From the NCBI GenBank assembly GCA_017466275.1, contig JAFTUL010000053.1:6163-70162 (forward strand): a stretch of DNA of 64,000 bases, written 5' to 3'. The notes beneath the pieces are model-generated. The model was not told where the DNA came from. It ran no database searches and was given only the letters and a program-made list of their open reading frames with translations. This document shows, one piece after another, positions 14,238-31,631 of this stretch. This stretch comes from Clostridia bacterium (GTDB lineage: Bacteria; Bacillota; Clostridia; UMGS1883). The position numbers and the translations under genes were made by a program. Numbering within the stretch: position 1 is the stretch's first letter; each line of letters starts with the position of its first letter.

Positions 14238-14274
14238 AAAATTCAGTGATGATAATTCATCACTGAATTTTTTA
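14236..14274. terminator. Bidirectional terminator shared by capA and the phage-type repressor
   Basis: 13-bp stem AATTCAGTGATGA-taat-TCATCACTGAATT flanked by an A-run and a T-run. It touches both stop codons. Confidence 0.85.
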
Positions 14275-14862
14275 GTTTAAACTCGTATGGCAAGCAACTG
14301 CTTTACCCAAAATCCGTATATTTTTACATTGCTTTTTCGTATAGACCATCGGTTTGTACTTGGGGTTTTCGGAAATAAGAGTTACGGCATCATCTGAAAT
14401 ATATACCCTTTTAAGGGTTGCCTCATCCTCTACTAAAACAGCGGCAATTTCACCGTCATCAACGGAATCCTGCTTGCGGATGAAAACAATATCTCCGTCT
14501 TTTATCCCTGCACCTATCATAGAATCTCCCTTGACCCTTAAACAAAAGTCTGCACGGGTGTCATTTATGGGGGAGAAATACTCACAATCCTCCGTTGCAA
14601 GTATGGGTTGCCCCGCTGCAATTTTACCAAGTAACGGAAGGCTGTTTTTACCTGCATTTTTTTCCTCACAACCCATAAGGTATGCAGGGGAACAATTAAA
14701 TATTCTTGCCATCTCAAGCACAGTTGCCTGCTTGAGATTTTTTATTTCTCCGCTTTCGTATCGCTGTGCAGTTGCTTCCCGTACACCGAGAGCGTTGGCA
14801 ACCTCTAACAATGTCATACCGCGGTCAAGACGACATTTTTTTATTCTTTCGTGTAATTTCAT
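14272..14862 (-). CDS. CI/LexA-like repressor (HTH_XRE plus S24 peptidase)
   Basis: N-terminal HTH (MTLLEVANALGVREATAQRYESG). Autocleavage determinants are present: AAG, GDSM (Ser) and LKRV (Lys). Confidence 0.9.
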   Translation of the reverse strand: MKLHERIKKCRLDRGMTLLEVANALGVREATAQRYESGEIKNLKQATVLEMARIFNCSPAYLMGCEEKNAGKNSLPLLGKIAAGQPILATEDCEYFSPINDTRADFCLRVKGDSMIGAGIKDGDIVFIRKQDSVDDGEIAAVLVEDEATLKRVYISDDAVTLISENPKYKPMVYTKKQCKNIRILGKAVACHTSLN

Positions 14863-14908
14863 ATATAATTAGTCCTTTCAAAGCTGATTTTAAAGGGCCT
14901 CTGTATAC

Positions 14909-14937
14909 AGTTTAACATCAACTTACGTAAAAAGCAA
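14909..14937 (-). promoter_or_regulatory. Predicted repressor promoter (PRM-like)
   Basis: On the minus strand: TTGCTT (14937-14932), 17 nt, TAAACT (14914-14909). Operator copy 1 lies in the spacer. Confidence 0.45.
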
Positions 14938-15016
14938 GAAAAATTTAAAAAAACTTACGTAAAAAGTATTGACATTCGACGAACCCCCTATTATACTGAC
15001 TTACGTAAAACGTAAG
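14921..15016. promoter_or_regulatory. Three operator-like repeats ACTTACGTAAAA (palindromic core TTACGTAA)
   Basis: Copies at 14921-14934, 14953-14966 and 14999-15010. The third extends to the palindrome CTTACG-taaaa-CGTAAG (15000-15016). A degenerate fourth copy ACTTACACGAAA is at 15049-15060. Confidence 0.75.
14969..14997 (+). promoter_or_regulatory. Predicted early/late rightward promoter (PR-like)
   Basis: TTGACA (14969-14974), 17 nt, TATACT (14992-14997). Bracketed by operator copies 2 and 3. Confidence 0.65.
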
Positions 15017-15063
15017 GCGAACAAAAGTTTGCTATAAAACTTACACGAAAGGAAAGATGCAAA

Positions 15064-15312
15064 ATGAAGTATTACGGAAAATTTTGTATAGTTTGCGGCA
15101 GGAGGATTCCGGAGCTTTCTTTAAGGAGAAGAACCTGCAGTGAGTTCTGCCGTTCCCGTTATAAGTGCGGATATGCTCCGTATAAAAATTGCACATCTTT
15201 GCCGTATGATGATTTGACGGCCATTCAGGAAGAAGCACAGAAAATGGGAATGAGCTACGGAAAATATATGGCAATGAAATATAAAAAGGAGAGTGAAGCC
15301 ATATGCCGATGA
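15064..15312 (+). CDS. Small zinc-ribbon protein, function unknown
   Basis: 82 aa with CIVC...CSEFC Cys pairs and a helical C-terminus (DDLTAIQEEAQKMGMSYGKYMA). First gene downstream of the PR-like promoter. Confidence 0.6.
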   Translation: MKYYGKFCIVCGRRIPELSLRRRTCSEFCRSRYKCGYAPYKNCTSLPYDDLTAIQEEAQKMGMSYGKYMAMKYKKESEAICR

Positions 15313-15503
15313 TGATGCAGTGCCCTTTTTATAAAAGGGACAACTACCTGAAGCTTTATTGCGAGGGAGGAACGCTAAAGTTCCCCGATGCAAGTGCGAG
15401 GAGTGAGTATGTACTCGGTTACTGTGCAAACAGTTATAACTGGAGAAAGTGTCCCATCGCTCATTGTCTTGAAAATTACTATTTCAGAAAGGAAGAGAAG
15501 TAA
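15303..15503 (+). CDS. Small Cys-rich protein, function unknown
   Basis: 66 aa with 5 Cys. Start overlaps the upstream gene and stop abuts the next (translational coupling). Confidence 0.55.
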   Translation: MPMMMQCPFYKRDNYLKLYCEGGTLKFPDASARSEYVLGYCANSYNWRKCPIAHCLENYYFRKEEK

Positions 15504-15757
15504 TGGATTATAAAAACGAGATAGCACGCCGTGATAAAAAGATTGAGGACTTAAAAAAGGAAATAAAAGCAAGGGAAGAAGAAATCTCCGCAATGCACGA
15601 GCTACTTGACTGTGCGGCAGCAAACCTTGTGCTTACGGTAAAAGAAAAAACAGTAAAAATTTCAAAAAAAGAGGTAAGCGAAGCCTTGGGTAAGTTCCAT
15701 TTGCAGGCAAAGGACGACGGAAACGGAAATTATATTCTGGAGATTGTGGAAGAATGA
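15503..15757 (+). CDS. Small coiled-coil protein, function unknown (sits where TerS would be)
   Basis: 84 aa, K/E-rich heptad-like N-terminus. ATGA overlap with TerL. Confidence 0.55.
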   Translation: MDYKNEIARRDKKIEDLKKEIKAREEEISAMHELLDCAAANLVLTVKEKTVKISKKEVSEALGKFHLQAKDDGNGNYILEIVEE

Positions 15758-17175
15758 ATATAATCTGGACACCTCAGCCGAGACAGAGGGAATTTATGAA
15801 ACGCAGAGAACACGAGGCTCTCTACGGTGGTGCTGCAGGGGGAGGGAAAAGCGACTGTGCCATTGCCGAGGCACTCCGTCAGGTACATATTCCTCATTAC
15901 AGAGGTCTTATTCTCCGTAAAACCTACCCCCAGCTTTCCGAAATGGTTGACAGAAGCAGGGAAATCTACCTACCTTCATTTCCCGACGCAAAATACAACG
16001 ACCAGAAGCACTCGTGGACATTTCCAAGCGGTGCGAAAATATATTTCGGTGCAATGCAGCACACCAAGGACAGAACAAACTATCAGGGTAAAAGGTACGA
16101 TTTTATTGACTTTGACGAGCTGACTCATTTCACATGGGACGAGTACAGCTATCTGTTTTCCAGAAACCGCCCCAACGGACCTGGAACGAGGTGCTACATC
16201 CGTGCTCAGGCAAATCCGGGCGGTATCGGTCATGGGTGGGTAAAGGAGAGGTTTATTTCTCCTGCACCGCCCATGACACCCATCCATGAGGATGTAAAAA
16301 TAATATTTCCCGACGGCAAAAGCGAAATAAGACGGCGAAGCAGGGTTTTTGTTCCATCAAGTATTTTTGACAACAAAATCCTTATGGAAAACGACCCCGA
16401 ATATATAACCCGCCTTGCATCACTTCCCGAAAATGAAAAACGTGCATTATTATACGGCGACTGGGACAGCTTCTCAGGGCAGGTATTTATGGAATGGAGA
16501 AACAACCCTGACGGATACTCAACCCGAAAGAACACCCACGTAATACCACCTTTCAAAATACCCCATTCGTGGAAGATATACCGTGGATTTGACTTTGGCT
16601 ATTCACGTCCCTTTTCAGTGGGGTGGTATGGGGTTGACCACGACGGCAGGCTTTACCGCATACGCGAGCTTTACGGATGTACGGGTACTCCGAACGAGGG
16701 GGTGAGGTGGGAGCCTGCGGAAATTGCAAAAAAGATAAAAACTATTGAAAACGAGGACATTAATCTTAAAGGGAAATATATATATGGCATTGCCGACCCG
16801 TCAATTTTTGACGAGAGCAGGGGTGAAAGCGTTGCCGTAATGATGGAAAGACAGGGAGTGTTTTTTGAAAAGGCAGATAACACCCGTGTTGCAGGAAAAA
16901 TGCAGCTTCACAACCGTCTTGCCTTTGACGAAAACGGTATACCCATGCTTTACATATTCAGCACCTGCAAGCATTTCATAAGAACAATTCCCTCCCTTGT
17001 ATACAGCGAGGCGGATGTGGAAGATATTGACACAACGCAGGAGGACCATATATATGACGAGGTCAGGTACATTGCTATGGCAAACCCCATAAATCCCCCG
17101 AAAAGAGAGTCCCCCATAAAAATATACAACCCATTGGAGGTGGATAGTTACGGAGAATACAACTTCTACAGATAA
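15754..17175 (+). CDS. terL: Phage terminase large subunit
   Basis: 473 aa. Walker A GGAAGGGKS, a Walker B-like FIDFDELTHF, and a C-terminal nuclease-like region with acidic residues. Confidence 0.9.
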   Translation: MNIIWTPQPRQREFMKRREHEALYGGAAGGGKSDCAIAEALRQVHIPHYRGLILRKTYPQLSEMVDRSREIYLPSFPDAKYNDQKHSWTFPSGAKIYFGAMQHTKDRTNYQGKRYDFIDFDELTHFTWDEYSYLFSRNRPNGPGTRCYIRAQANPGGIGHGWVKERFISPAPPMTPIHEDVKIIFPDGKSEIRRRSRVFVPSSIFDNKILMENDPEYITRLASLPENEKRALLYGDWDSFSGQVFMEWRNNPDGYSTRKNTHVIPPFKIPHSWKIYRGFDFGYSRPFSVGWYGVDHDGRLYRIRELYGCTGTPNEGVRWEPAEIAKKIKTIENEDINLKGKYIYGIADPSIFDESRGESVAVMMERQGVFFEKADNTRVAGKMQLHNRLAFDENGIPMLYIFSTCKHFIRTIPSLVYSEADVEDIDTTQEDHIYDEVRYIAMANPINPPKRESPIKIYNPLEVDSYGEYNFYR

Positions 17176-17179
17176 AGAA

Positions 17180-17461
17180 ATGAAAATTGCCGACAAGCTT
17201 CTTGGAGTGCTCGACAAGGCAATAAAAGACAAGAAGCAGTTTTACCGCTATATCGTAAAGGAAAAGAACGGCTCCGACAGCGGAGAAGAAGAGCGAGTTT
17301 TCGGGAAAATGGATATGCAGGCATTTAACAACGCCATAAAAGCACTCGACTCTCTCGCAGAAATCAAAAGAGGTATAGGCGGGGAGACAAAGAAACAGGA
17401 AGACAGTAGCGAAAAAGAAACGGGAGTAGTAATACTTCCCGAGGTGGAGGACGACAAATGA
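17180..17461 (+). CDS. Hypothetical acidic phage protein
   Basis: 93 aa between TerL and the portal. 4-nt overlap with the portal start. Confidence 0.5.
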   Translation: MKIADKLLGVLDKAIKDKKQFYRYIVKEKNGSDSGEEERVFGKMDMQAFNNAIKALDSLAEIKRGIGGETKKQEDSSEKETGVVILPEVEDDK

Positions 17462-19098
17462 AATTAACTGAAATGTTTAAGGAAAAAGAAACCGTATCCG
17501 CAAGGCGGAAAATAGGTAAAGAAGAAATATCTGTTGCTGCGGAGGTTTTGCGTGATTACAAAAATTCCAAATCGGCTTTGGAAGCAAGAATTATTGAGGA
17601 TGAACAGTGGTGGAAGCTTCGTCATTGGGAAACATTCGGCAAGGAACAGGAGAAAGGGAAAACAAAAAGCGTAAGTGCGTGGCTTTTTAACACCATTACA
17701 AGTAAGCACGCAGATGCAATGGATTCTTTTCCCGATGCAAGCGTGCTTCCGAGGGCGAGAGATGACGAGGAGGAGGCAAAGCTCCTTTCAGGCATTCTGC
17801 CTGCTCTTATGGAGCATAACAAGTTTGAGGAAATTTACTCAAATAACTGGTGGTACAAGCTGAAGCACGGGTGCTGTGCCTACGGAGTTTTCTGGAACAG
17901 CGAGGCAGAAAACGGTTTGGGTGACATACAGATTAAGAAGATTGACCTTCTTAATATTTTCTGGGAGCCTGGTGTAAACGATATTCAGAAAAGCAGAAAC
18001 CTTTTTATTGTGGATTTAAAGGATGCAGATATTTTAGAAAGTGAATACCCCTCTCTCCGCGGAAAAAACCTCGGCAGTGCAATTGATGTGAAGCAGTACA
18101 TATATGACGATACGGTAGATGTATCAAATAAGGTGCTGGTAGTCGATTGGTACTACAAGCTCCGCAATCCCGACGGAAAAACAGTTCTTCATTACTGTAA
18201 GTTTGTGGGTGACAATGTGCTTTTTGCCTCTGAAAACGAGGAGGAATATAAGGATTGCGGATGGTATGACCACGGTGAATATCCGATAGTCCTTGACAGC
18301 CTTTTCCCCGAGGAGGGAACTCCGGTTGGCTTTGGCTTTGTAGCCGTTACGAAAAATCCGCAGATGTATATAGACAAGCTCGGCGATGCCATTTTGGATA
18401 ATGCTCTTATGGCGGCAAAGCCAAGATATTTTGCTAAAATTTCCGCAGGAGTGAACGAGCAGGAATTTTTAGACTGGTCAAGACCCATTGTGCACGTTGA
18501 GGGAGATATAAATGAGGAAAGACTCCGTCCAATCGGTGTAAGTCAGCTTCCCCCTGCCTGCACAAATATTCTGCAGATGAAGATAAACGAACTAAAGGAA
18601 ACAAGCTCCAACAGTGACTTTAACCGCGGCAGTGCAGTAGGCGGAGTAACCGCGGCATCAGCCATTGCGGCACTTCAGGAGGCAGGTAATAAGATGAGCC
18701 GTGATATGCTCAAGGCAACTTACAGGGCATATACGACAATTAATTATCTGTGCATAGAGCTGATTCGTCAGTTCTATACGGAAACAAGGTGCTTCCGCAT
18801 AACGACGGCAGACGGAGGTTACAGCTTCTCCGATTACAGTAACAAGAATCTGAAAACGGTGAAAAACGGAGACAACCTCTACCGCAAGCCGGTTTTTGAT
18901 ATTGCCGTAAAGACGCAGAAGAAGAGTCCTTATACAAGGCTTGCACAAAATGAGCTTGCCAAGGAGCTTTTCAGGCTGGGATTTTTCAACCCCGAAAATT
19001 CGGCACATGCATTGGCGGCACTTGAAATTATGGATTTCGAGGGCAAGCGTGCCGTGGAAGAAAAAATAAGAGAGCTTTCGCAAAATGAAAGGATGTAA
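17458..19098 (+). CDS. Phage portal protein
   Basis: 546 aa located between TerL and the scaffold/capsid genes. Size and N-terminal helical region are consistent with portals. Confidence 0.7.
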   Translation: MKLTEMFKEKETVSARRKIGKEEISVAAEVLRDYKNSKSALEARIIEDEQWWKLRHWETFGKEQEKGKTKSVSAWLFNTITSKHADAMDSFPDASVLPRARDDEEEAKLLSGILPALMEHNKFEEIYSNNWWYKLKHGCCAYGVFWNSEAENGLGDIQIKKIDLLNIFWEPGVNDIQKSRNLFIVDLKDADILESEYPSLRGKNLGSAIDVKQYIYDDTVDVSNKVLVVDWYYKLRNPDGKTVLHYCKFVGDNVLFASENEEEYKDCGWYDHGEYPIVLDSLFPEEGTPVGFGFVAVTKNPQMYIDKLGDAILDNALMAAKPRYFAKISAGVNEQEFLDWSRPIVHVEGDINEERLRPIGVSQLPPACTNILQMKINELKETSSNSDFNRGSAVGGVTAASAIAALQEAGNKMSRDMLKATYRAYTTINYLCIELIRQFYTETRCFRITTADGGYSFSDYSNKNLKTVKNGDNLYRKPVFDIAVKTQKKSPYTRLAQNELAKELFRLGFFNPENSAHALAALEIMDFEGKRAVEEKIRELSQNERM

Positions 19099-19102
19099 AG
19101 GT

Positions 19103-19816
19103 ATGAATAAAAACGAGAAAAAGGTTATCACCTCTGCCAAAAGCGCGCAGGCAGAAGATAATATAAATGCTGAAAAGAGTGCGGAAGTCAGCACCCCGCA
19201 AACGGGCGATAAGGAAAGCTTTGCCGCCGGAAGCACAAGGGACAAGGACAAAGAATTTGATGCACTTATTGAAAATGAGTACAAGGAACAGTTTTCAAAA
19301 AAGGTGCAGAAAATCATCAGCAAAAGACTCAGGGAGGTGAAAAACTTGAAGGAAGAAAATGTGAAGAACGCAGAAAACAAGGATGAGATTTTAAGACGAC
19401 TTGCTCTGGAAAACAGACTCCTCAAAAAGCGTAACGAGGATGAATTTCAGCTTATGAAGCTTCGCAGTGAAGCGCAGAAGATGAGAGAGCAGGCGGCAGA
19501 AACAAAGGAGGTATACCCCGACTTTGATTTTGAAAAGGAGATAAAGAATCCTGAATTTATGAGACTTCTCAGGCTTGGTGTAGGCGTTAAAAACGCGTAC
19601 GAGGTTGCAAATATTGATGCAATTCTTGAAAAGAATACACAGGCAGCGGAGAAAAAGGTGGTTGATTCAATCCGCCTTAAGGGCAACAGACCCGTTGAAA
19701 ACGGCAGCGAGGGTGCATCGGGCATTTTACTCTCAGGCAATGCGTCCAAGCTTTCCAGAAAGGAAAGAGCGGAGCTTGCAAAGAGAGCTGCCAAGGGCGA
19801 AAGAATCAGCCTGTAA
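19103..19816 (+). CDS. Phage scaffolding protein
   Basis: K/E-rich predicted coiled coil immediately upstream of the major capsid gene. The start may be 19085 or 19103. Confidence 0.6.
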   Translation: MNKNEKKVITSAKSAQAEDNINAEKSAEVSTPQTGDKESFAAGSTRDKDKEFDALIENEYKEQFSKKVQKIISKRLREVKNLKEENVKNAENKDEILRRLALENRLLKKRNEDEFQLMKLRSEAQKMREQAAETKEVYPDFDFEKEIKNPEFMRLLRLGVGVKNAYEVANIDAILEKNTQAAEKKVVDSIRLKGNRPVENGSEGASGILLSGNASKLSRKERAELAKRAAKGERISL

Positions 19817-19848
19817 AAACTATTAAATAAAAATTGGAGGACTAATTA

Positions 19849-20874
19849 ATGTATAAGTTTAATTTGCAGCACTTTGCTGCAGGCGATGTTGTGAACACAA
19901 CAGCAGGCATTACAAATGCCAATACGGGAGAAAACACTCCCTATAGCGGAGAGGGCGGTCTTTCAGGTGAAATGAAGATCTACTACTCCGACTATCTTAT
20001 TGATATGGCGGAGCCCAAGCTGGTACACGACCAGTTCGGTCAGAAGTGCCCCATTCCCCAAAATGGCGGTAAGACTATTGAGTTCCGTAAGTATGACCCG
20101 CTTCCCAAGATGACAACTCCCCTTATGGAAGGTGTCACTCCTGAAGGTCAGAAGCTTGATATGAAGACCGTATCAGCAGAGGTTAAGCAGTTCGGCGGTT
20201 TCATTGAGCTTTCAGATATTCTTATGCTTACAGCCATTGACAATAATCTTGTACAGGCTACAAAGCTTCTCGGCGGTCAGGCAGGCAGAACTCTTGACAC
20301 TATTACAAGAGAGGTTCTTGCAGGCGGTACAAATGTACAGTTTGCAGAAGGTCAGGTAGAAAGCCGTGGCGAGCTTGTAGGCGGTAAGGAGGAGGGCAAC
20401 CACTACCTTACAGTTGATGCAATCAGACGTGCGGTAAGATACTTAAAGAAGATGAATGCCGAAACAATTAACGGCAGTTATGTGGGTATTATTCACCCCG
20501 ATGCTTCCTATGACCTTATGAGCGACCCCAAGTGGATAAATGTAAAGACTTACTCTGACCCCGAGGGTATCTATCAGGGCGAAATCGGTAAGATTGAAAA
20601 TGTCCGCTTCGTGGAAACCTCCGAAGCTAAGATTTTCGAGGGCGAGGGCAAGGACGGTGTTGACGTATATGCAACCCTCATCATCGGTGATAATGCTTAC
20701 GGTACAACAGAAATTTCAGGCGGCGGTCTTCAGCATATTGTAAAGCAGCTTGGCTCTGCAGGTACTGCTGACCCTCTCAATCAGCGTGCAACTGCAGGCT
20801 GGAAGGCTACAAAGGCGGCTGTAAGACTTGTTGAACCCTATATGATTCGTATTGAAACAGCATCAAGCTTCTGA
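19849..20874 (+). CDS. Major capsid protein (N4-gp56 / HK97-fold family)
   Basis: 341 aa. N-terminal FNLQHFA motif and overall resemblance to N4-gp56-type capsid proteins. Strong RBS GGAGG. Confidence 0.8.
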   Translation: MYKFNLQHFAAGDVVNTTAGITNANTGENTPYSGEGGLSGEMKIYYSDYLIDMAEPKLVHDQFGQKCPIPQNGGKTIEFRKYDPLPKMTTPLMEGVTPEGQKLDMKTVSAEVKQFGGFIELSDILMLTAIDNNLVQATKLLGGQAGRTLDTITREVLAGGTNVQFAEGQVESRGELVGGKEEGNHYLTVDAIRRAVRYLKKMNAETINGSYVGIIHPDASYDLMSDPKWINVKTYSDPEGIYQGEIGKIENVRFVETSEAKIFEGEGKDGVDVYATLIIGDNAYGTTEISGGGLQHIVKQLGSAGTADPLNQRATAGWKATKAAVRLVEPYMIRIETASSF

Positions 20875-20886
20875 TGAAGTAATAAT

Positions 20887-20913
20887 CCCTCAGTCGGCAA
20901 AACCGACTGAGGG
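20887..20913 (+). terminator. 11-bp stem-loop after the capsid gene (partial terminator or mRNA stabiliser)
   Basis: CCCTCAGTCGG-caaaa-CCGACTGAGGG. Only a weak T-tract follows. Confidence 0.4.
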
Positions 20914-20936
20914 GAAATTTGAAAGGAGTAAATATT

Positions 20937-21200
20937 ATGGCAACAAACAAAGAAACAAAGATTAATTCAAATACATTGGTGGAGATTGAGCTTTTCCGTG
21001 ATAACAGGGACTACAAGGACGACGTGTTTGTAGCGGTAAACGGCGAAAGCTGTGTTATTGCACGCGGTAAGAAGGTAATGGTAAAGAAGAAGTTTGCTGA
21101 CGTAATTGCACAGTCTATGAGTCAGGATGTAAAGACAGCAAAGCTTATGGATAATAAGTCCGACGAATTTTTCACTGAAGCTGCCGCAAGAAATATATAA
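20937..21200 (+). CDS. Hypothetical phage head-associated protein
   Basis: 87 aa. The ATG at 20937 follows AAAGGAG. Located between the capsid and fibre genes. Confidence 0.5.
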   Translation: MATNKETKINSNTLVEIELFRDNRDYKDDVFVAVNGESCVIARGKKVMVKKKFADVIAQSMSQDVKTAKLMDNKSDEFFTEAAARNI

Positions 21201-21215
21201 AAGGAGGTCTTTTAT

Positions 21216-22337: not shown

Positions 22338-22684
22338 CGGTGAATTCTGTAATTGAACAGACTATGAAGCTTCATCCCGACACCATTACCGATGCTGTGA
22401 AATGCCGCTGGCTCAGTGAACTTGACGGAAAAATAGTGCGTGAAACAATGCAACGTGATGATTTTGTCCCGTATAAATTCCCCGAAGACGGAGAAAAAGA
22501 GCTTGTAGTAAAAGAGCCCTACGACAATCTCTATGGGCTTTACATTATCGCTATGAGCGACTTTTTCAGTGGAGAAATGGCAAATTATGCGGCATCGGCA
22601 GTTTTGTTTGAAGAGGCATATTCAGAGTTTCGTAAAAATTACATTCGTAACAATATTCCTCCAAGCCATAATTATGTCATATAA
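22334..22684 (+). CDS. Head-tail connector/adaptor-like protein (gp6-like)
   Basis: About 116 aa. ATGA overlap with the fibre gene. Size, position and a Y/F-rich helical pattern fit connector proteins. Confidence 0.5.
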   Translation: MTVNSVIEQTMKLHPDTITDAVKCRWLSELDGKIVRETMQRDDFVPYKFPEDGEKELVVKEPYDNLYGLYIIAMSDFFSGEMANYAASAVLFEEAYSEFRKNYIRNNIPPSHNYVI

Positions 22685-22695
22685 GGAGTGATTGG

Positions 22696-24474: not shown

Positions 24475-24483
24475 GGTGATACA

Positions 24484-24672
24484 ATGTTTATGAATCTTGG
24501 CGACCTTTCGGGCAAAAGCCCACAGGAAGCAATAAGCATTATAGAAAATTACATAAGAACAAATCAGGAAATGTTTGAATATATACTGACACACCTTGAC
24601 AGCTCCAACATTATTGAAATTGATTTAAGTAAAACAAATGTTTTACAAGGAGGACTAAATGAGCTACAATAA
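24484..24672 (+). CDS. Hypothetical phage protein
   Basis: 62 aa with RBS GAGGTG. Overlaps the next ORF. Confidence 0.45.
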   Translation: MFMNLGDLSGKSPQEAISIIENYIRTNQEMFEYILTHLDSSNIIEIDLSKTNVLQGGLNELQ

Positions 24673-25615
24673 GGAAATTGACTATCAGTCAAAAATTAAC
24701 GATGCAGTAGCAAACGGTGACTACAAAAGTGCCGCAAAATACGAGCAGAGCAGAAACGAGAAAATAGACAGCGAGGGGCTTAATTACGAAAAGACAAACC
24801 GCTACTCAGGTTGGCTTGATGATACAGACTATTCCAATGTGCTTAAGAAGCAAATGTCATCAGGTGCATCTAAAAGCTCCGTTTCGGACACTCTCAAAAA
24901 GCGTATTTCAAAGGCAAGCGGTACAGACGGGCTTACACAGTACGCCTATGACGACGTCTATGATGAGGCAATCCGTTACATAATGGGAAATGGAGTTTTT
25001 ACAGAAAGACCAACCTACAAAAATTCCTACGAAAGAGATATTTCAAGGCTTCTTGAAAAGCTTTTAAACACAAAATCCTTTTCATATAATCCCTATGACG
25101 ACGACCTTTACGAATTTTACAGACAGCAGTATATTCGTGAGGGGGACCGTGCAATGGAGGACCTTTTGGGTGAGCTTTCAGTTTCCACCGGAGGTGTCGC
25201 TTCAAGCTATGCTGTAAGTGCGGCGGCTCAGGCAAGGGAAAACTATAATCGCAAGCTTACCGATAAGATTCCCCAGCTTTATGAGGATGCGTATGAACGT
25301 TATATTGACGGAATTGAAAAGGACGAAAGTACCTTTAAGCTTCTTCAGGATTTGTCTGACGGTGAGTACAAGAGGTATCTTGACAGCATAGAGCTTTACA
25401 ATAAGGAAAGAGAGCTTGACTATAAGAGAGAAGCAGACGCAAGAGAAGAAGAATATAATCAAAGCCGTGACAGCGTGGATAAAGCACTGGCAAAGTGGAA
25501 GGTACTTGGTTATCTTGACGAGGAAAGTGCAAGAATCCTCGGACTTCCGGCAGGGCTTCACACAACAGACTACGACTATAAAAAGGCACAGCAGTACAAA
25601 ATTTACAGTAAATAA
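24659..25615 (+). CDS. Hypothetical phage structural protein
   Basis: 318 aa, Y/D/E-rich and helical. RBS AAGGAGG. Confidence 0.5.
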   Translation: MSYNKEIDYQSKINDAVANGDYKSAAKYEQSRNEKIDSEGLNYEKTNRYSGWLDDTDYSNVLKKQMSSGASKSSVSDTLKKRISKASGTDGLTQYAYDDVYDEAIRYIMGNGVFTERPTYKNSYERDISRLLEKLLNTKSFSYNPYDDDLYEFYRQQYIREGDRAMEDLLGELSVSTGGVASSYAVSAAAQARENYNRKLTDKIPQLYEDAYERYIDGIEKDESTFKLLQDLSDGEYKRYLDSIELYNKERELDYKREADAREEEYNQSRDSVDKALAKWKVLGYLDEESARILGLPAGLHTTDYDYKKAQQYKIYSK

Positions 25616-25658
25616 AACATAAACCCCCCCATGCTGTACCCAAAAGCACAAAAAACAC

Positions 25659-25687
25659 TTGCACAAATGCGGATAATTGGGTATAAT
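25659..25687 (+). promoter_or_regulatory. Sigma-A type promoter of nfnAB
   Basis: TTGCAC, 17 nt, TATAAT. Confidence 0.6.
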
Positions 25688-25725
25688 TAAACTCACACTG
25701 TTTATTTTGTAAGGAATGAATACAT

Positions 25726-26568
25726 ATGTACAGAATTATTGAAAAGACGGTGCTTAATCCCACCGTTACAAAAATGGTTATAGAAGCCCCACTTATTGCA
25801 AAAAAGGCGGAGCCGGGACAGTTTATAATTTTCAGGGTGTCGGAGAACGGCGAGAGAGTTCCTCTTACCATTGCCGACTATGACCGGGAAAAGGGACCAG
25901 TAACTATAATATTTCAGGTAGCAGGTGCGTCCACAATGGAGCTTAACGCCCTTAATGAGGGTGACTGCATATGTGATTTTGCAGGCCCTTTGGGAACTCC
26001 CAGCAAGATTAAAAACCTCAAAAAGGTTTGTGTTGTAGGCGGTGGAGTTGGATGTGCCATAGCATACCCCGTTGCAAAAAAACTTCACGAAAACGGATGT
26101 GAGGTACACGTAGTGGCAGGCTTCAGAAATAAGGATTTGGTGATTCTGGAAAAGGAATTTTCTGCAGTGAGCGACATAATGAAAATTATGACCGACGACG
26201 GAAGCTACGGAGAAAAAGGACTTGTCACAAATGCATTGGAGGAGCTTGTAAATGCAGGTAATGACTATGACGAGGTTATTGCAATAGGTCCTCTCATTAT
26301 GATGAAGTTCGTGTGCCTTACCACAAAGAAGTACGGTATAAAAACCACCGTTTCAATGAATCCGATTATGGTTGACGGAACAGGAATGTGTGGCGGATGC
26401 CGTCTTACCGTAGGCGGAGAAACTAAGTTTGCCTGCGTTGACGGTCCTGATTTTGACGGACATCAGGTAGATTTCGACGAGGCTATGAAACGCAATGGAA
26501 TATACAAGGAATTTGAAGCACATAAGAGAGAAGAAACCTGTAACCTCTTCAAAAAGGAGGTAATGTGA
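25726..26568 (+). CDS. nfnA: NfnA-like FAD/NAD-binding [2Fe-2S] subunit (sulfide/dihydroorotate dehydrogenase-like)
   Basis: 280 aa. Ferredoxin-reductase-type fold motifs (RVPLTIADY, VGGGVGCA) and a C-terminal CGGC...C cluster. Confidence 0.75.
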   Translation: MYRIIEKTVLNPTVTKMVIEAPLIAKKAEPGQFIIFRVSENGERVPLTIADYDREKGPVTIIFQVAGASTMELNALNEGDCICDFAGPLGTPSKIKNLKKVCVVGGGVGCAIAYPVAKKLHENGCEVHVVAGFRNKDLVILEKEFSAVSDIMKIMTDDGSYGEKGLVTNALEELVNAGNDYDEVIAIGPLIMMKFVCLTTKKYGIKTTVSMNPIMVDGTGMCGGCRLTVGGETKFACVDGPDFDGHQVDFDEAMKRNGIYKEFEAHKREETCNLFKKEVM

Positions 26569-26569
26569 T

Positions 26570-27958
26570 ATGACTAATATGAATCCTAAAAAATGCCCCA
26601 TGCCTTCTCTTGACCCCAAAGTAAGAAGCAAGAACTTTGAGGAGGTTGCCACTGGATATACCTATGAGATGGCAATAGAGGAAGCAAAAAGATGCTTTGC
26701 CTGCAAACACAAGCCGTGCAGAAGCAAATGCCCAGTAGGAATTGATATTCCTGCATTCATAGCAAAATTGGCAGCAGAGGATATAAAAGGTGCATATGAG
26801 ATTATCTCCCAAAGCAGTACTCTTCCCGCCGTGTGCGGAAGAGTGTGTCCGCAGGAAAACCAGTGCGAAAGTGCTTGTATACGCGGTATTAAAGGTGAGA
26901 GTGTAGCAATCGGCAGGCTTGAACGCTTTGTTGCCGATTACTGCAGAGAGCATTATAAGGAAGAAGCCAAGAAGCCTCAGCCAAACGGCAAAAAAGTGGC
27001 AATCATTGGTTCCGGCCCATCAGGACTTACTGCGGCAGGCGACCTCAGTAAACTCGGTTACGAGGTAACGGTTTTTGAAGCTCTTCATACCCCGGGCGGT
27101 GTTCTGGTTTACGGAATTCCCGAATTCAGACTTCCCAAAACGATTGTCAGTGAAGAAATTGACAAGCTTCAGGCAATGGGTGTGAAAATTGAAACCAATG
27201 TAATAATTGGTAAAACAATTACCGTTGATGAGCTTTTTGACGATGGTTTCTCGGCAGTTTATATAGCCAGCGGAGCAGGACTCCCAAGCTTTATGAATAT
27301 AAAGGGAGAGAGTCTTAACGGTGTTTACAGTGCAAACGAATACCTTACCAGAATAAATCTTATGAAGGCATATCTTCCCGATTCCAAGACTCCTGTTAAA
27401 AAGAGTAAGCGAGTTGCGGTAGTAGGCGGCGGAAACGTGGCAATGGATGCAGCACGCAGTGCAGTAAGACTCGGTGCCGAGGCGGTGTACATTATTTATA
27501 GGAGAGGTATGGAAGAGCTTCCTGCCAGAAACGAGGAAATCGAGCACGCGCACGAAGAGGGAGTTATTTTCAGAACATTGACTGCTCCCGTGGAAATACT
27601 CGGTGACGATGATGGTAATGTCCGCGGAATAAGATGCGTACGTATGGAGCTTGGTGAACCAGATGAAAGCGGAAGAAGAAGACCTGTTCCGATAGAGGGC
27701 AGCGAATATGACAGAGAAGTGGACACCGTAATTATGGCGATAGGAACAAGCCCCAACCCCCTTATCCGCAGTACAACCCCTGGTTTGGAAGTTAACAGAC
27801 GCGGATGTATAGTAACTGACGGAGAAGACGGAAAAACCTCCCGTGAGGGTGTGTATGCCGGCGGTGACGCAGTAACAGGTGCAGCAACGGTTATTCTTGC
27901 AATGGGTGCGGGAAAGAGTGCTGCAAAGGCAATTGATAATTATTTGAAAAATTTATAA
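26570..27958 (+). CDS. nfnB: NfnB / GltD-like NADPH-dependent oxidoreductase subunit
   Basis: 462 aa. N-terminal 2x[4Fe-4S] Cys motifs and two Rossmann motifs (IIGSGPSG, VVGGGNVAMD). Confidence 0.8.
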   Translation: MTNMNPKKCPMPSLDPKVRSKNFEEVATGYTYEMAIEEAKRCFACKHKPCRSKCPVGIDIPAFIAKLAAEDIKGAYEIISQSSTLPAVCGRVCPQENQCESACIRGIKGESVAIGRLERFVADYCREHYKEEAKKPQPNGKKVAIIGSGPSGLTAAGDLSKLGYEVTVFEALHTPGGVLVYGIPEFRLPKTIVSEEIDKLQAMGVKIETNVIIGKTITVDELFDDGFSAVYIASGAGLPSFMNIKGESLNGVYSANEYLTRINLMKAYLPDSKTPVKKSKRVAVVGGGNVAMDAARSAVRLGAEAVYIIYRRGMEELPARNEEIEHAHEEGVIFRTLTAPVEILGDDDGNVRGIRCVRMELGEPDESGRRRPVPIEGSEYDREVDTVIMAIGTSPNPLIRSTTPGLEVNRRGCIVTDGEDGKTSREGVYAGGDAVTGAATVILAMGAGKSAAKAIDNYLKNL

Positions 27959-27987
27959 AAAACTTAAAAAGTGTAACGACTTTCGAC

Positions 27988-28028
27988 AACCCCCGTGATA
28001 TATATATCGCGGGGGTTTGTGTTTTGGG
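27988..28028 (+). terminator. Intrinsic terminator after nfnB
   Basis: AACCCCCG...CGGGGGTT stem followed by TGTGTTTT. Flanked by a 10-bp inverted repeat AAAAGTGTAA/TTACACTTTT. Confidence 0.65.
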
Positions 28029-28062
28029 GGTCATTACACTTTTTATTTGTAAAGGAGACAAT

Positions 28063-29106
28063 ATGAACGAAATAATAATTAAAGTCAGCGGACAGTTTAT
28101 TTCAAAAAACAGTAAAAATGCAGGTGCAGCAGGAGAAGCAAATTCCTGCAGTATAAAATTCTGTTTTGACGACAGTTGGGCAGGATTTTCCAAAAGGGTT
28201 CTCTGGCGTGACAGCAAGGGAGAAAATCTTACAAGCGTAATCCTTGTTCCCGACATAGAAAATCAAAGTGAGTATAACAGTATCATTCCTGCCTGCATTA
28301 CAAAGGCTTCGGGCTGGTGTACATTCACGGTAGAGGGATATTTTGAATCAAATCCTGACATTGTAAATAAGTCAGTCAGCGACAGCCTTTTTATCGGATA
28401 TTCGGATCTAAGTGATGAGATTGTTCCCATAAGTCCGAGTGAGGCTATGCAGCTTCAGAGTGAATTTGAAACTTTAATGCCACGAGTAAAAAGTCTGATG
28501 GAGGAAACGCAAAGCGGTATAGAGTCCTTTTGTGAGAATCATAACGTTTGGGAGAATTACAACATTGACGCTGTGTATAAAGCAGGAAACAAGGTCTTTT
28601 ATAAAGGTTGTTCGTATGTTTGCATCAAAGAAAATCAGGGAGCATCACCCGAAAACAGTGATTGCTGGCAGATAATTGCAGACCGCGGACAGCGTGGGCA
28701 GAAAGGTAATCAGGGACCACAGGGTATTACTGGAGAAAGAGGAGAAAAAGGGGATAAGGGTGAAAAAGGCGATAAAGGAGATAAAGGCGATAGAGGTGAC
28801 AAGGGAGATAGAGGCATAAACGGAAGTATCGTTCCGTCTAACGGCTTTTACACCTTCAGCGTGGATGAAAACGGGGATTTGTGGCTTCATTATCCCGATT
28901 CTGCAAATAAGCCGGAAGTAACGCTCGATGGAAACGGAGAACTCATTTTGACTGTTGATGGGGAAACCGCTTACTCATTTAATCTTGGCATGGTAAAGGG
29001 TGAGAAAGGTGATTTGCCCAAAAAAGGAGTAGATTACTGGACGGAAAACGATAAAGCTGAAATAAAAGCTTATGTAGAAGATGCTATTTTAGGAGGTGCG
29101 TGGTAA
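28063..29106 (+). CDS. Tail-fibre-like protein with collagen tract and CBM5/12-like carbohydrate-binding motif
   Basis: The ATG at 28063 follows AAAGGAG. G-X-Y tract GQRGQKGNQGPQGITGERGEKGDKGEKGDKGDKGDRGDKGDRGINGS (nt 28687-28824), preceded by a W...Y..G..V.Y.G..Y......G..P.....W pattern. Confidence 0.7.
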   Translation: MNEIIIKVSGQFISKNSKNAGAAGEANSCSIKFCFDDSWAGFSKRVLWRDSKGENLTSVILVPDIENQSEYNSIIPACITKASGWCTFTVEGYFESNPDIVNKSVSDSLFIGYSDLSDEIVPISPSEAMQLQSEFETLMPRVKSLMEETQSGIESFCENHNVWENYNIDAVYKAGNKVFYKGCSYVCIKENQGASPENSDCWQIIADRGQRGQKGNQGPQGITGERGEKGDKGEKGDKGDKGDRGDKGDRGINGSIVPSNGFYTFSVDENGDLWLHYPDSANKPEVTLDGNGELILTVDGETAYSFNLGMVKGEKGDLPKKGVDYWTENDKAEIKAYVEDAILGGAW

Positions 29107-29927
29107 TGAGCGTTAACGAAAAAATGACAGCTATTGCCGATAATATCCGTGATAAGACAGGTGGCACAGAAATTCTTACCCTTGACGAGATGGCAAACGG
29201 TATAAATGAAGTATACGAAGCAGGGAAGCGGAAAGAATGGTCGGATTTTTGGGATGCATATCAGAATTACGGCCAAAGAGACAATTATCGTTATGGTTTT
29301 TATTTTTTTTATAGCAGTACAGACCCCGAACATTTTTGGACTGACGAAAATTTCAAACCTAAGTACGATATAAAACCTAACAACATTGCAGAGCATATGT
29401 TTGACGCTTGTGGTTTTACAGACCTTAAGGGAATTTTAGAAAAACAAGGAGTTGTATTAGATACATCAAGTGCAACAAATCTTCAATATGCATTTGCAAA
29501 CTGTACTTACTTAACAAGAGTTCCTGTTATAGATGTGTCAAAGAGTAAAAATGCGAATGTAATACAATATCTTTTTCAGTTTTGCAATAGTCTGGAATAC
29601 GTTGAAAAACTAATAATCCCAAGCACAGTCGATACCTCATTTTTTTCTGTGTTTAACGGTTGCTACAAGCTTAAAGAAGTTCGTATTGAGGGAGTAATAG
29701 CAACGAGCATTTCTTTTACCGGTACGAAGTATCTGTCTGTTGAAAGTATGAAAAGCGTAATATCTTGTTTAAAGAATTATGCAGGAACGACAAAAGAGCA
29801 TACATATACAGTAACTTTCAAGGCAGTAGTATTTGAAGCATTAGAAGCATTAGGAGAAACACCTCCAAGCGGAAACACATGGGCAGAACATATTGATAAC
29901 CTTAAATGGAATCTTACTTTATCATAA
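29106..29927 (+). CDS. Fibre/receptor-binding-like protein with BspA-type leucine-rich repeats
   Basis: N-terminus MSVNEKMTAIADNIRDKTGG, as seen in clostridial prophage fibre proteins. C-terminal repeats resemble BspA LRRs. Confidence 0.55.
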   Translation: MSVNEKMTAIADNIRDKTGGTEILTLDEMANGINEVYEAGKRKEWSDFWDAYQNYGQRDNYRYGFYFFYSSTDPEHFWTDENFKPKYDIKPNNIAEHMFDACGFTDLKGILEKQGVVLDTSSATNLQYAFANCTYLTRVPVIDVSKSKNANVIQYLFQFCNSLEYVEKLIIPSTVDTSFFSVFNGCYKLKEVRIEGVIATSISFTGTKYLSVESMKSVISCLKNYAGTTKEHTYTVTFKAVVFEALEALGETPPSGNTWAEHIDNLKWNLTLS

Positions 29928-29942
29928 GGGGGGGGTAAATAA

Positions 29943-30191
29943 ATGTACAGAAAAGTTAAGGCAAAGCTTGAAAACACTATATTTGAAGCAAGAGAAGAAA
30001 ACGGAAGAATCTTATCCTATCGCATAAGTCCTGCTGAGGGATACAAGCTTCACGAAATAACACTTGATGAATGCGTTAATGAAATAGGAGAAATAAAACC
30101 TGGATTTACAAAATCCTATATAACTGCAGGAGCAGGATACGATTTTGAAAAAAATGAAAGACAGATTTATGCAGAGGAGGTGAAAGAATGA
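29943..30191 (+). CDS. Hypothetical phage protein
   Basis: 82 aa located between the fibre and holin genes. 4-nt overlap with the holin. Confidence 0.45.
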   Translation: MYRKVKAKLENTIFEAREENGRILSYRISPAEGYKLHEITLDECVNEIGEIKPGFTKSYITAGAGYDFEKNERQIYAEEVKE

Positions 30192-30616
30192 ACACCACAA
30201 TAAAAAATACCATCCTTGCTGTCTGTGCAGGGATGGGAAGTGTGTTGGCAGAAGCTTTTGGAGGTTGGGATTCTTTTTTAAAGGCATTGGTTCTTTTTAT
30301 GGTTGCAGATTACATAACGGGGATGACCGTTGCCCTTGTTTTTCACAAATCGGGAAAAACAAAAAACGGAGGTGCCTCAAGTGCGGTAGGGTTTAAAGGT
30401 ATTGTTAAAAAGCTATGCATCTTTTTCCTTGTGGCTTTGGCTGTAAGGGTTGATTTAATTACGGGCACAAGTTACGTGCGTAATGCTACAATATTCTTTT
30501 TCTTAGGTAATGAGGGACTCAGTGTTATTGAAAATATCGGGCGTATGGGGGTTAAGTATCCGGCATTTTTAAAGAAAGCTCTGGAAACCTTAAAAGAGAA
30601 AAATGAAGAAACATAA
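30188..30616 (+). CDS. Phage holin (holin_4_1 / toxin-secretion type)
   Basis: 142 aa with 3 predicted TM segments and a charged C-terminus. Located directly upstream of the amidase. Confidence 0.7.
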   Translation: MNTTIKNTILAVCAGMGSVLAEAFGGWDSFLKALVLFMVADYITGMTVALVFHKSGKTKNGGASSAVGFKGIVKKLCIFFLVALAVRVDLITGTSYVRNATIFFFLGNEGLSVIENIGRMGVKYPAFLKKALETLKEKNEET

Positions 30617-30659
30617 TTTCTGAAATTAAACATATTATGTACAAGGAAGGATTGATAAA

Positions 30660-31406
30660 ATGAGTGAGTTTAAAAAATACAATATAGAAGAATTTGATAA
30701 ATACATAACCTCGCTTAATGTTTCACGTGGGATAAAGCTTGTTCAGCTTCATCATACATATGTCCCCAGTTATAAGCAGTTTACAGGGAACAATCATATT
30801 CAGTTGCAGACGGGAATGAGAAATTACCACATAAATACCAACGGCTGGTCAGACATAGCACAGCATTTTACGATTTTCCCTGACGGTGCAATAGTGACGG
30901 GAAGAAGTGTGGAAATGATTCCTGCAGGCATAAAGGGGGCAAATGCAGGTGCCATATGTATAGAGTGTGTGGGGAATTTTGATGCGGGCGGAGATGTGAT
31001 GAGAAAAGAACAGAAAGATGCAATCGTAAGCGTTGTAAAAATCCTTATGCATAAATTTTCTCTTCAGCCTGAAAACGCAATTGTGTATCACGGATGGTGG
31101 ACCGCATCGGGCAAGAAACTGGGTGATTATACAAAAGGTAAATCCGCCAAAACCTGCCCCGGTACAAATTTCTTCGGGGGAAATACAAGAAAGGCATTTG
31201 AGGAGAATTTGCTTCCGCTTGTTGCCGGTTATGAAAAGAAAACAAAGAAAATGCTGGAAACTGCAAATGATATTACATGGGAATTAAACCATACTTACTT
31301 TCCCATTGATGATGTTGATAGATTCAAGAAAATTCTTGACGAAGCAAAAAAAGAAAACAATCCTTTGTATTGGGGCTATTATAAGCTTGTGAACAGAATA
31401 AAGTAA
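30660..31406 (+). CDS. N-acetylmuramoyl-L-alanine amidase endolysin (Amidase_2/PGRP-like)
   Basis: 248 aa. Motifs LVQLHHT and ...CPG... are consistent with Amidase_2. Follows the holin. Confidence 0.75.
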   Translation: MSEFKKYNIEEFDKYITSLNVSRGIKLVQLHHTYVPSYKQFTGNNHIQLQTGMRNYHINTNGWSDIAQHFTIFPDGAIVTGRSVEMIPAGIKGANAGAICIECVGNFDAGGDVMRKEQKDAIVSVVKILMHKFSLQPENAIVYHGWWTASGKKLGDYTKGKSAKTCPGTNFFGGNTRKAFEENLLPLVAGYEKKTKKMLETANDITWELNHTYFPIDDVDRFKKILDEAKKENNPLYWGYYKLVNRIK

Positions 31407-31421: not shown

Positions 31422-31459
31422 AAAAAACAGCACCTACTTAAATGTAGATGCTGTTTTTT
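31422..31459 (+). terminator. Intrinsic terminator after the endolysin
   Basis: CAGCACCTAC-ttaaat-GTAGATGCTG followed by TTTTTT. Confidence 0.8.
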
Positions 31460-31626: not shown

Positions 31627-31631
31627 AAATA

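Follow-up and report, generated by a model that had tools for sequence, protein, structure and literature searches.

Results and Discussion

A Probable Domesticated Podophage Locus in Gut Clostridia

We analysed a stretch of 64,000 nt from a Clostridia bacterium (contig JAFTUL010000053.1; this whole stretch is called the window below) and found at 14272-31406 an element of about 17 kb that is probably, at roughly 70%, the domesticated and immobile descendant of a temperate podophage. On this reading the locus is vertically inherited and is an SOS-switched producer of podovirus-type particles that resemble gene transfer agents (GTAs). The particles would most likely be short-tailed and carry host DNA, by analogy with FpGTA, the podovirus-like GTA element of Faecalibacterium prausnitzii (Nat Commun 2026;17:2046, PMC12946183). 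The element is fixed between capA and a tRNA operon in the window, and its carriers are a clade of uncultured gut Oscillospiraceae-type Clostridia.

A preliminary description of the window had proposed that this is a grounded locus for podovirus-like particles, maintained by selection for GTA-like packaging or for killing. Our results on synteny, intact open reading frames (ORFs), purifying selection, co-divergence, the kept switch, the nozzle fold, and early genes that occur in relatives only all agree with that proposal. Its account of the switch, the terminator, most genes and the absent integrase, transposase and replication genes was also confirmed. Three of its statements have to be corrected, namely that the block is a continuous set of phage genes, that it has no small terminase (TerS), and that no described example was known; in addition, its gp6-like connector has no family support.

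The window proteins were scanned against PHROGs and Pfam, and also against NCBIfam, and noncoding RNAs were searched with Rfam, which gave nothing beyond three tRNAs. Related loci were obtained by scanning a capsid alignment across one genome per GTDB species. The capsid protein family is very large (at least 8000 clusters at E < 1e-20), and 80 loci of 133 confirmed matches were taken. All window proteins were mapped onto the collected loci (cited as L with a number), which were then sorted by synteny. Genes in these loci were called by strand-aware reading together with the collection's own gene calls. An identical capsid protein occurs on several metagenome contigs, and its neighbours there are likewise the same.

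Vertical Inheritance and Selection

About 30 GTDB species representatives carry the complete set of genes in the same order and at the same site, with HD-gltX-capA on one side of the junction and repressor to amidase on the other. The remaining collected loci have a related structural core in other contexts. The syntenic group has each gene as a full-length ORF, with similar sizes across species, and no close relative (TerL at least 80% identical) lies within a larger prophage, an outcome that the preliminary description had asked about.

We estimated selection as the median pairwise ratio of nonsynonymous to synonymous divergence (dN/dS, NG86). The element genes gave values of 0.03 for the large terminase (TerL), 0.05 for the portal, 0.10 for the nozzle, 0.08 for the 318-aa protein p318 and 0.04 for the holin. 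The capsid protein gave 0.11, and 0.04-0.06 against close relatives. The host genes gltX, nfnB and capA gave 0.045, 0.048 and 0.064, respectively. The element genes are constrained as tightly as the housekeeping genes beside them, and the comparison across species, which had been suggested as a check, showed no relaxed selection. Between the window and L066, the species nearest to it, synonymous divergence was 0.23-0.52 for element genes and 0.42-0.56 for host genes; therefore, the element is as old as the species split.

Co-divergence was measured as Mantel's r between protein distance matrices. The correlations with capA were 0.94 for TerL, 0.91 for the portal, 0.93 for the nozzle and 0.96 for fibre 2, compared with 0.86-0.92 between host proteins. 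Host divergence in the syntenic clade reaches 17.6% for GltX and 45% for CapA, and the clade is therefore deeper than one genus. In a neighbour-joining tree of TerL+portal, all syntenic loci group together in one clade that lies within the other loci, a topology that points to a single event of immobilisation. The alternative that each species acquired the element by its own site-specific integration was also considered; it was rejected on the grounds of co-divergence, the lack of an integrase, and the embedded host genes nfnAB.

Not all left flanks are alike in the syntenic group: 2-3 kb of additional DNA separates capA from the repressor gene, or the flank is a different one, in several species (L057:1667-3821, L071:1042-4191, and the left flanks of L062, L065 and L068), and L045 is without capA.

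Mobile Relatives and the Lost Early Genes

All ORFs in 14272-31406 were scanned with PHROGs and Pfam for integrase, transposase and replication families, and no match was found, in agreement with what had first been noted. The same scans of the block ORFs gave no match to sheath, tube or tape-measure families. Direct repeats of at least 12 nt joining the two edges of the element were not found, nor were att-like repeats, which were sought at the outer edges and around nfnAB. A megablast search of the INPHARED phage collection with the entire block returned no match.

In the two mobile relatives that we inspected, early genes lie directly upstream of TerS/TerL. L028, a prophage in the Oscillospiraceae isolate CM710M_45, encodes a Lin1244-type replication organiser, a G39P-type helicase loader, DUF1064, a MazF toxin and a 214-aa TerS with a helix-turn-helix (HTH) domain. 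L108, a 36.6-kb viral contig from IMG/VR, encodes an HTH repressor, ParB_N, PAPS_reduct, REP_ORF2-G2P and an HTH-containing TerS. In the syntenic clade, a repressor and three small ORFs stand in place of all these early genes. The IMG/VR matches to TerL at 83-97% identity were four short fragments alone; the next match was at 79%, and a large number of 30-45 kb contigs, in which the core genes stand in the same order, matched at 63-68%.

The three small ORFs lie between the switch and TerL (features are on the plus strand unless stated otherwise). The first, s82 (15064-15312), is an 82-aa Cys4 zinc-ribbon protein with a weak match to the treble-clef family DUF2116; it is present in all syntenic loci and is a candidate regulator. 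The second, s66 (15303-15503), is a 66-aa Cys-rich protein with a dN/dS of 0.00-0.02 against close relatives. The third, s84 (15503-15757), is an 84-aa coiled-coil protein whose gene overlaps the TerL start by 4 nt. In the phage-type loci, homologues were found for s66 and none for s82 or s84.

The Repressor Switch and the Element Boundaries

The left boundary of the element is a bidirectional terminator hairpin at about 14240-14272, identified by reading the sequence. The stop codons of the repressor gene and of the host gene capA (PGA_cap by Pfam) face each other across this one hairpin, as already recognised. The repressor (14272-14862, minus strand) is a CI/LexA-like protein of 196 aa with HTH_3 and Peptidase_S24 domains (PF00717, 2e-30). 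Its autocleavage determinants AAG, GDSM and LKR can be seen in the translation and had been correctly called intact. The HTH, AAG, GDSM and LK(R/K) motifs are kept in 26/26 species checked. In L052 (~2530-3190) and L071 (~4191-4860), the HTH is kept and the S24 domain is different; overall identity is 49-50%, and the operators are unchanged.

The operator-promoter region (14921-15016) contains a near-consensus promoter, TTGACA-17-TATACT, at 14969-14997, which diverges from the repressor gene. It is bracketed by three exact copies of ACTTACGTAAAA at 14921, 14953 and 14999, in line with the repeated operators noted earlier. When up to one mismatch was allowed, ACTTACGTAAAA had four matches in the window (the three operators and one within the nozzle gene), a count reached in 0 of 100 shuffles. 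A palindromic operator, CTTACGTAAAACGTAAG, is found at 15000-15016. We examined 30 syntenic and 54 other loci for the motif ACTTACGTAAAAAGTATTGAC, which comprises operator and -35 box, with a search pattern that tolerates a few degenerate positions. The motif was present in 29 of the 30 syntenic loci and in none of the 54 others, and in most syntenic loci a palindrome, CTTACGTAAnACGTAAG, follows it 45-47 nt downstream. The conservation of promoter, operators and cleavage residues across synonymous saturation argues that the CI/LexA-type switch is in use.

At the right boundary, a terminator hairpin (31425-31460, by sequence reading) precedes the genes for tRNA-Lys/Thr/Asp, which lie on the minus strand at 31551-31789. 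The tRNA operon at this edge, and its lack of a duplicated segment, had been described correctly; there is no edge-linking repeat of 12 nt or more. The tRNA-Asp/Thr/Lys operon (minus strand) has a promoter that matches the consensus in 12/12 positions and a terminator of its own (31514-31549, 31851-31879), back to back with the element terminator. In the syntenic loci that reach far enough (L030, L035), no tRNA was found beside the amidase gene.

A Small Terminase without Its DNA-Binding Domain

TerL is encoded at 15754-17175 (phrog_979, 5e-63; PF03237). The next gene, at 17180-17461, encodes 93 aa and is, by comparison with its orthologues, a small terminase without a DNA-binding domain: the C-terminal part, for oligomerisation and TerL contact, remains, and the N-terminal HTH is deleted. 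The preliminary description had stated that the block has no TerS.

Several lines of comparison identify this gene. In most syntenic species, the gene between TerL and the portal encodes 160-200 aa and starts with KYDWNAIKTEFVTGDISAAALAKKHGINKATLYRHY. The HTH region of these full-length orthologues matches phrog_1206 and phrog_51, both annotated "terminase small subunit". Weak homologues are also found upstream of TerL, in the TerS position, in two phage-type loci, and one of them is a clear Terminase_2 protein. The alignment shows clean N-terminal deletions that remove the HTH. Placed on the TerL+portal tree, these deletions belong to no fewer than four separate lineages: the clade of the window itself (86-107 aa), L058 with L051 and L052, L030, and L035. 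The C-terminal part, including its ...GVVILPEVE tail, is kept under purifying selection (dN/dS 0.04-0.17). The loci compared were the window at 17180-17461, L017:6791-7324, L050:6765-7307, and L058, L051, L052, L030 and L035. Loss of the DNA-binding domain of TerS has been given as the explanation for non-specific packaging in RcGTA (PMC6854486).

Head, Nozzle, Fibre and Lysis Genes

The preliminary calls of TerL, portal, N4-gp56 capsid, two collagen-like fibres, holin and amidase were borne out by PHROGs, Pfam and TIGR04387 matches. The portal (17458-19098) is of the P22/SU10 type (phrog_156, 4e-79; PF16510). The scaffolding protein (19085-19816; phrog_13908) is assigned by position, since its gene lies between the portal and capsid genes in all relatives. 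The major capsid protein (19849-20874) belongs to the N4-gp56 family with the HK97 fold (TIGR04387, 1e-96; phrog_1357, 8e-90). It is followed by p93b (20919-21200), a conserved 93-aa head or neck protein (phrog_15239, 2e-23) found after the capsid gene in all relatives.

The capsid gene shows a pattern of its own. Two size classes occur in the syntenic clade, one near 341 aa (327-342) and one near 440 aa (439-468), the latter through an insertion of about 100 aa; the loci concerned include L030, L031, L040 and L048. The co-variation of the capsid with the host genes is also weaker (Mantel r 0.43-0.66) than that of the other element genes. In phage-type loci L013-L016, the capsids are 80-83% identical to that of the window, and the portals of L014 and L016 are only 53-54% identical; no portal match was found in L013 and L015. 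This pattern suggests either exchange of capsid genes or unusually strong constraint. Directly after the capsid stop, a strong GC-rich hairpin of 12 bp (20887-20913) could be a partial terminator or a transcript stabiliser.

Collagen-like fibre 1 (21216-22337) was recognised by its Collagen repeat and by tail-fibre PHROGs. The protein p123 (22313-22684; 123 aa) had been called a gp6-like connector. No family supports that call, and the lone match is phrog_12105, for which no function is assigned; p123 holds the same position in phage relatives and is, from that position, a candidate portal-nozzle adaptor.

No recombinase or replication gene was found among the unknown proteins. Structure prediction followed by Foldseek, as had been recommended, gave an identity for the 592-aa protein at 22696-24474. 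Its AlphaFold2 model (38 homologues, pLDDT 90.4) folds as a podovirus tail nozzle of the P22 gp10 / T7 gp12 type. The Foldseek matches in the PDB were cyanophage A4 (9k09_U, 1e-16), P22 gp10 (9jg6 and 8eap, about 1e-13; 8eap_D, 1e-13), Sf6 gp8, SU10, and T7 gp12 (7ey7_s, 1e-11).

Downstream of the nozzle gene are p62 (24484-24672), a conserved 62-aa protein, and p318 (24659-25615), an all-helical protein of 318 aa with a helix of about 100 residues (AlphaFold2 model, pLDDT 80.7). The p318 model had no significant Foldseek match in the PDB, the top one being a MakA-type helical toxin at E 0.07; we infer that p318 is a candidate internal or ejection-type protein. Searches of PDB sequences by phmmer with the nozzle, p318 and p123 gave nothing useful, and tblastn of the nozzle and p318 against phages matched unannotated human-gut contigs only.

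The second group of phage genes begins with collagen-like fibre 2 (28063-29106), of 347 aa from an ATG with a good ribosome-binding site. Next comes a fast-evolving protein (29100-29927; dN/dS about 0.3), a candidate receptor-binding protein. It had been called a leucine-rich repeat (LRR) protein; the call stands in so far as PF13306 is matched, and the match is weak (E 1e-4) and below the curated cut-off. An 82-aa protein, p82 (29943-30191), overlaps the holin start by 4 nt. The holin (30188-30616; PF05105, 1e-38) and an endolysin (30660-31406), an N-acetylmuramoyl-L-alanine amidase of the Amidase_2 family (PF01510, 1e-14), complete the element. Scans of NCBIfam, Pfam and PHROGs gave no family of known function for s66, s84, p93b, p123, p62 and p82, and for s82 gave nothing beyond the weak DUF2116 match.

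The LRR-like protein is 52% identical between genomes whose holins are 96% identical, and fibre 1 falls to 53% identity where the capsid is 97% identical. Such divergence is the pattern expected if adsorption specificity matters, and it looks like turnover of receptor-binding proteins.

Embedded Host Genes and the Two Modules

The block is not a continuous phage gene set, as it had been listed. A host operon, nfnA-nfnB (25726-27958; Pfam), which is not phage-derived, lies inside it and has its own promoter at 25660-25687. The two genes, nfnA (25726-26568; DHODB_Fe-S_bind/NAD_binding_1) and nfnB (26570-27958; Fer4_20/Pyr_redox_2), encode an NfnAB-type oxidoreductase pair. The promoter, TGCACA-16-TATAAT in the window, is kept across species. 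In four syntenic loci (L030, L031, L035, L045), nfnAB is missing and p318 abuts fibre 2. By the TerL+portal tree, the insertion of nfnAB is ancestral to the clade and was lost once, in one subclade.

A strong GC-rich terminator hairpin with a T-run (27988-28017) is found just upstream of the fibre/lysis module, and a homologous hairpin, CCCCGTGAT...ATCACGGGG, precedes the fibre 2 gene in all syntenic loci. It follows nfnB where nfnAB is present and follows p318 in the four species without nfnAB. Because the hairpin is kept with or without nfnAB, it is part of the element and splits the head/nozzle module from the module for fibre, receptor-binding protein and lysis.

Proposed Mechanism and Alternative Explanations

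In the proposed mechanism, a divergent autocleavable CI/LexA-like repressor acts on a strong sigma-70-type promoter bracketed by three conserved operators. DNA damage (RecA*) would lead to self-cleavage of the repressor, and the promoter would be derepressed in a fraction of the cells. The operon would then supply the three small proteins, TerL, the HTH-less TerS, portal, scaffold, N4-gp56-type capsid, fibre, candidate adaptor, P22/T7-type nozzle and helical protein. The conserved terminator hairpin parts this first module from the second, with its fibre, variable LRR protein, holin and amidase, and the second module would therefore need read-through or anti-termination, which one of the three small proteins might provide. 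Anti-termination is known in the Caulobacter GTA (PMC11150451). Because TerS is without its DNA-binding domain and there are no replication or excision genes, the terminase would fill heads with host DNA with no preference for the locus. Holin and amidase would lyse the producer, and the fibres and the variable receptor-binding protein would target related cells.

Several points weigh against this interpretation. Purifying selection is equally expected for a killer-particle system. Most syntenic species keep a full-length TerS with the HTH, so packaging there may start at a specific site and random packaging would not be clade-wide. With a terminator in front of it and the constitutive-looking nfnAB promoter upstream, the fibre/lysis module has no explained route of expression. 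None of the proteins could be identified with confidence as a head-tail adaptor, a tail plug or an ejection protein. In addition, the relatives on viral contigs of 30-45 kb imply that the heads might hold more than the 17-kb locus, which would remove one classical GTA criterion.

The strongest competing explanation is a PBSX-like killer particle, a domesticated system selected to kill competing strains in which the packaged DNA is an undelivered by-product. We regard it as unlikely, though well ahead of the other rivals. The SOS-type repressor, the lysis cassette and the lack of replication and integration genes are as consistent with the way PBSX works as with a GTA, and the fibre and LRR proteins, which are 34-52% identical where their neighbours are about 90% identical, fit strain-level targeting. 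However, TerL, TerS and portal are among the most constrained proteins (dN/dS 0.03-0.05), which would be unexpected if packaged DNA were irrelevant; yet PBSX keeps its terminase and portal too. The recurrent loss of the TerS DNA-binding domain points to selection on the packaged content. For a short, non-contractile podovirus tail, we know of no DNA-free killing mechanism and of no such tailocin, and this also counts against a killer. The authors of the FpGTA study raise the same alternative for their own element (PMC12946183).

A second explanation is an anchored prophage that cannot excise and performs lateral-type transduction: in the species with an HTH-containing TerS, packaging would start from an internal pac site and run into the adjacent chromosome in successive heads. 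The full-length TerS of most syntenic species and the absence of any excision or replication gene among our matches would agree with it, as would the large heads implied by the 30-45 kb viral contigs of relatives. For one Oscillospiraceae species, F23-B02, host DNA was reported to be packaged at a uniform 34.9 kb although no prophage was induced (PMC12946183). However, the HTH of the window's TerS is deleted, which makes site-specific initiation unlikely here, and no pac site was identified. We consider this explanation improbable as a separate one; it is better seen as a stage of the same domesticated system.

A capsid-forming phage satellite, or a helper-dependent mobilisable island, would be superficially similar in its small size, its terminase, portal and capsid genes and its lack of replication genes, and a preprint of July 2026 voiced such doubt on a 12.7-kb candidate cluster from the murine Butyricicoccaceae genus QXXE01 (bioRxiv 10.64898/2026.07.08.737213). 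It is nevertheless very improbable for the window: no integrase, att repeat, replication gene or primase gene was found, the element has its own nozzle, fibres and lysis genes, its position is fixed with host co-divergence across about 30 species, and the embedded nfnAB are incompatible with a recently mobile island. A decaying prophage remnant without current function, which the many missing phage modules and the host genes within the block might suggest, is contradicted by our results, as all ORFs have stayed intact across about 30 species with dS reaching saturation, core dN/dS is 0.03-0.1, and promoter, operators and catalytic residues are kept.

Returning to the domesticated, GTA-like system, we tentatively propose a further step, which seems to us possible, though less likely than not. 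The clade may record GTA evolution in progress, by a domestication separate from that of FpGTA. A single immobilisation of a podophage, with its SOS switch kept, would stand at the root of this Oscillospiraceae-type lineage of several genera, and the DNA-binding domain of TerS would then have been lost at least four times, with a shift from site-initiated, lateral-transduction-like packaging to random packaging. If this is true, the same phage lineage was domesticated repeatedly across Oscillospirales (FpGTA in Faecalibacterium, a fixed cluster of about 12 kb in Butyricicoccus, and the window locus), and the window locus would be the missing source of GTA-like or phage-less generalised packaging in gut Oscillospiraceae.

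Host DNA is now known to move frequently by way of capsids in the human gut, a traffic attributed largely to Ruminococcaceae and Oscillospiraceae. The sole locus tied to it is FpGTA, and there is none in Oscillospiraceae. The window locus is a concrete candidate for a large uncultured clade, with a simple predicted induction switch, the self-cleavage of its repressor. Species with and without the TerS DNA-binding domain offer a natural comparison for how packaging specificity fades as a phage becomes a GTA. There is also a warning for annotation: prophage finders will label such loci "incomplete prophages" though they behave as conserved host genes.

Comparison with Known Systems

The temperate podophages of Oscillospirales (the IMG/VR contigs of 30-45 kb, L028, and the Bacillus megaterium Page-like phages with 35% capsid identity) have the same structural core order as the window. 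In contrast to it, the two inspected have early genes, including replication-type genes, and a full HTH-containing TerS; the podophages have no fixed chromosomal site, and TerL identity is at most 79%. An intact temperate prophage would have an integrase, att sites and a replication module, and none of these was found in the element. A satellite of the capsid-forming phage-inducible chromosomal island type would have int and rep/primase genes, no tail genes and a variable location, which is the reverse of the arrangement seen here. A PBSX-like particle or tailocin would have a contractile or long rigid tail, and the tail of the window element is of the nozzle type.

PBSX of Bacillus subtilis is nevertheless comparable in other respects. 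Both systems are in Firmicutes, have a phage-type repressor, are SOS-inducible (predicted for the window), are defective in replication and integration, and would package host DNA and lyse the producer. PBSX differs in its contractile, myovirus-type tail, its role as a killer particle and its non-homologous structural genes. Xre, the PBSX repressor, is not known to be an S24 autocleaving protein.

GTAs of the RcGTA type in Alphaproteobacteria are likewise vertically inherited, phage-derived structural clusters under purifying selection without replication or integration genes, and in both cases lysis and fibre functions lie apart from the head cluster. The TerS of RcGTA is also without a DNA-binding domain (PMC6854486). 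RcGTA differs from the window in its siphovirus-like long tail, its unrelated proteins, its small head of about 4 kb, and its host regulators CtrA/GafA, compared with the phage-type autocleavable repressor of the window. Three general features of a GTA are found in the element, namely chromosomal phage-derived head, tail and packaging genes, no match to replication, integration or excision genes, and vertical inheritance with purifying selection. For a further one, the packaging of essentially random host DNA in pieces smaller than the locus, the deleted DNA-binding domain of TerS would be the one indirect indication.

The closest described system is FpGTA, a published podovirus-like element, which supersedes the earlier remark that such particle producers are long-tailed and that no example like the window was known. 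Its operon I (10.5 kb) comprises genes for a TerS that lacks the DNA-binding domain, for TerL, the portal and a scaffold or Prp-like protein, and for an N4-gp56 capsid and a nozzle whose match is PDB 8eap. Operon II (5.5 kb), 125 kb away, encodes fibres, a receptor-binding protein, holin and endolysin. Its particles measure about 40 nm, no tail is visible on them, and the host DNA inside is 8.4-8.9 kb long. In that paper, RCH50849 and RCH50846 are annotated in the same way as we annotate the set of N4-gp56-family capsid, P22-type portal and P22 gp10-type nozzle in the window. The same study reported GTA-like packaging in Oscillospiraceae (Onthomonas), with no locus identified (PMC12946183).

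FpGTA and the window element are both podovirus-derived and share the N4-gp56 capsid, TerL, portal, HTH-less TerS and P22 gp10-type nozzle. Both have a head/nozzle module apart from the module for fibres, receptor-binding protein, holin and endolysin, have no integrase or replication genes, and occur in gut Oscillospirales. The HTH-less TerS is found in the window and three other lineages, not in most syntenic species. The spacing of the FpGTA I accessions fits the window order TerL-portal-scaffold-capsid-small-small-nozzle-small-helical, and so do the Faecalibacterium loci L088-L090. The two systems differ in their hosts, Ruminococcaceae for FpGTA versus a clade whose sole family-level record label is Oscillospiraceae. 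The modules of the window lie at one locus, 2.4 kb apart and adjacent in four species, versus 125 kb in FpGTA. The window has an adjacent CI/LexA-type repressor with operators, and for FpGTA no regulator was reported. TerS follows TerL in the window and precedes it in FpGTA; in addition, the window has an extra collagen-like fibre in its first module and the embedded host genes nfnAB.

Four Faecalibacterium loci (L080, L088-L090) are collinear with the window, with identities of 55% for the capsid, 66% for TerL and 48% for the portal, and from TerL to the 200-aa protein their order fits the spacing of the FpGTA I accessions. Their strain is listed in the FpGTA paper as a carrier of an FpGTA I homologue; yet the loci have an HTH-containing TerS, a Rep-like gene and a 3600-aa protein, and they may be a phage relative rather than FpGTA itself. 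The identity of L080 (F. prausnitzii APC923/61-1) with FpGTA I was not established: its proteins are recorded as RAW61287.1 and RAW61289.1 and differ in accession from the RCH series (RCH50844-RCH50853) of ATCC 27766, and phage-like extras lie nearby, so that the link is indirect. In L088-L090, the structural core is followed, from about 16450-21029 on, by a giant protein (3557-3620 aa) that contains MuF_C and PBECR5 domains, and a comparable ORF, longer than 2711 aa, is found in L087 (Faecousia). The identical capsid protein RAW61287.1 / WP_112147646.1 is recorded on 427 contigs.

Four Butyricicoccus species (L047, L049, L036, L074; about 4900-16700) have a compact core of about 12 kb from TerL to p318 with shared host flanks. 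This core is possibly another fixed element, perhaps the 12.7-kb QXXE01 candidate of the preprint. L070 comes from an assembly with the accession prefix QXXE01, the same as the genus name in the preprint. Fixed elements of this phage lineage thus seem to recur across Oscillospirales.

Taken together, the window locus is an unreported lineage of a kind described in 2026, and it is not categorically new. The features that have not been reported before are its autocleavable repressor switch, its single-locus layout with embedded host genes, its deep synteny in about 30 species, and the recurrent loss of the TerS DNA-binding domain.

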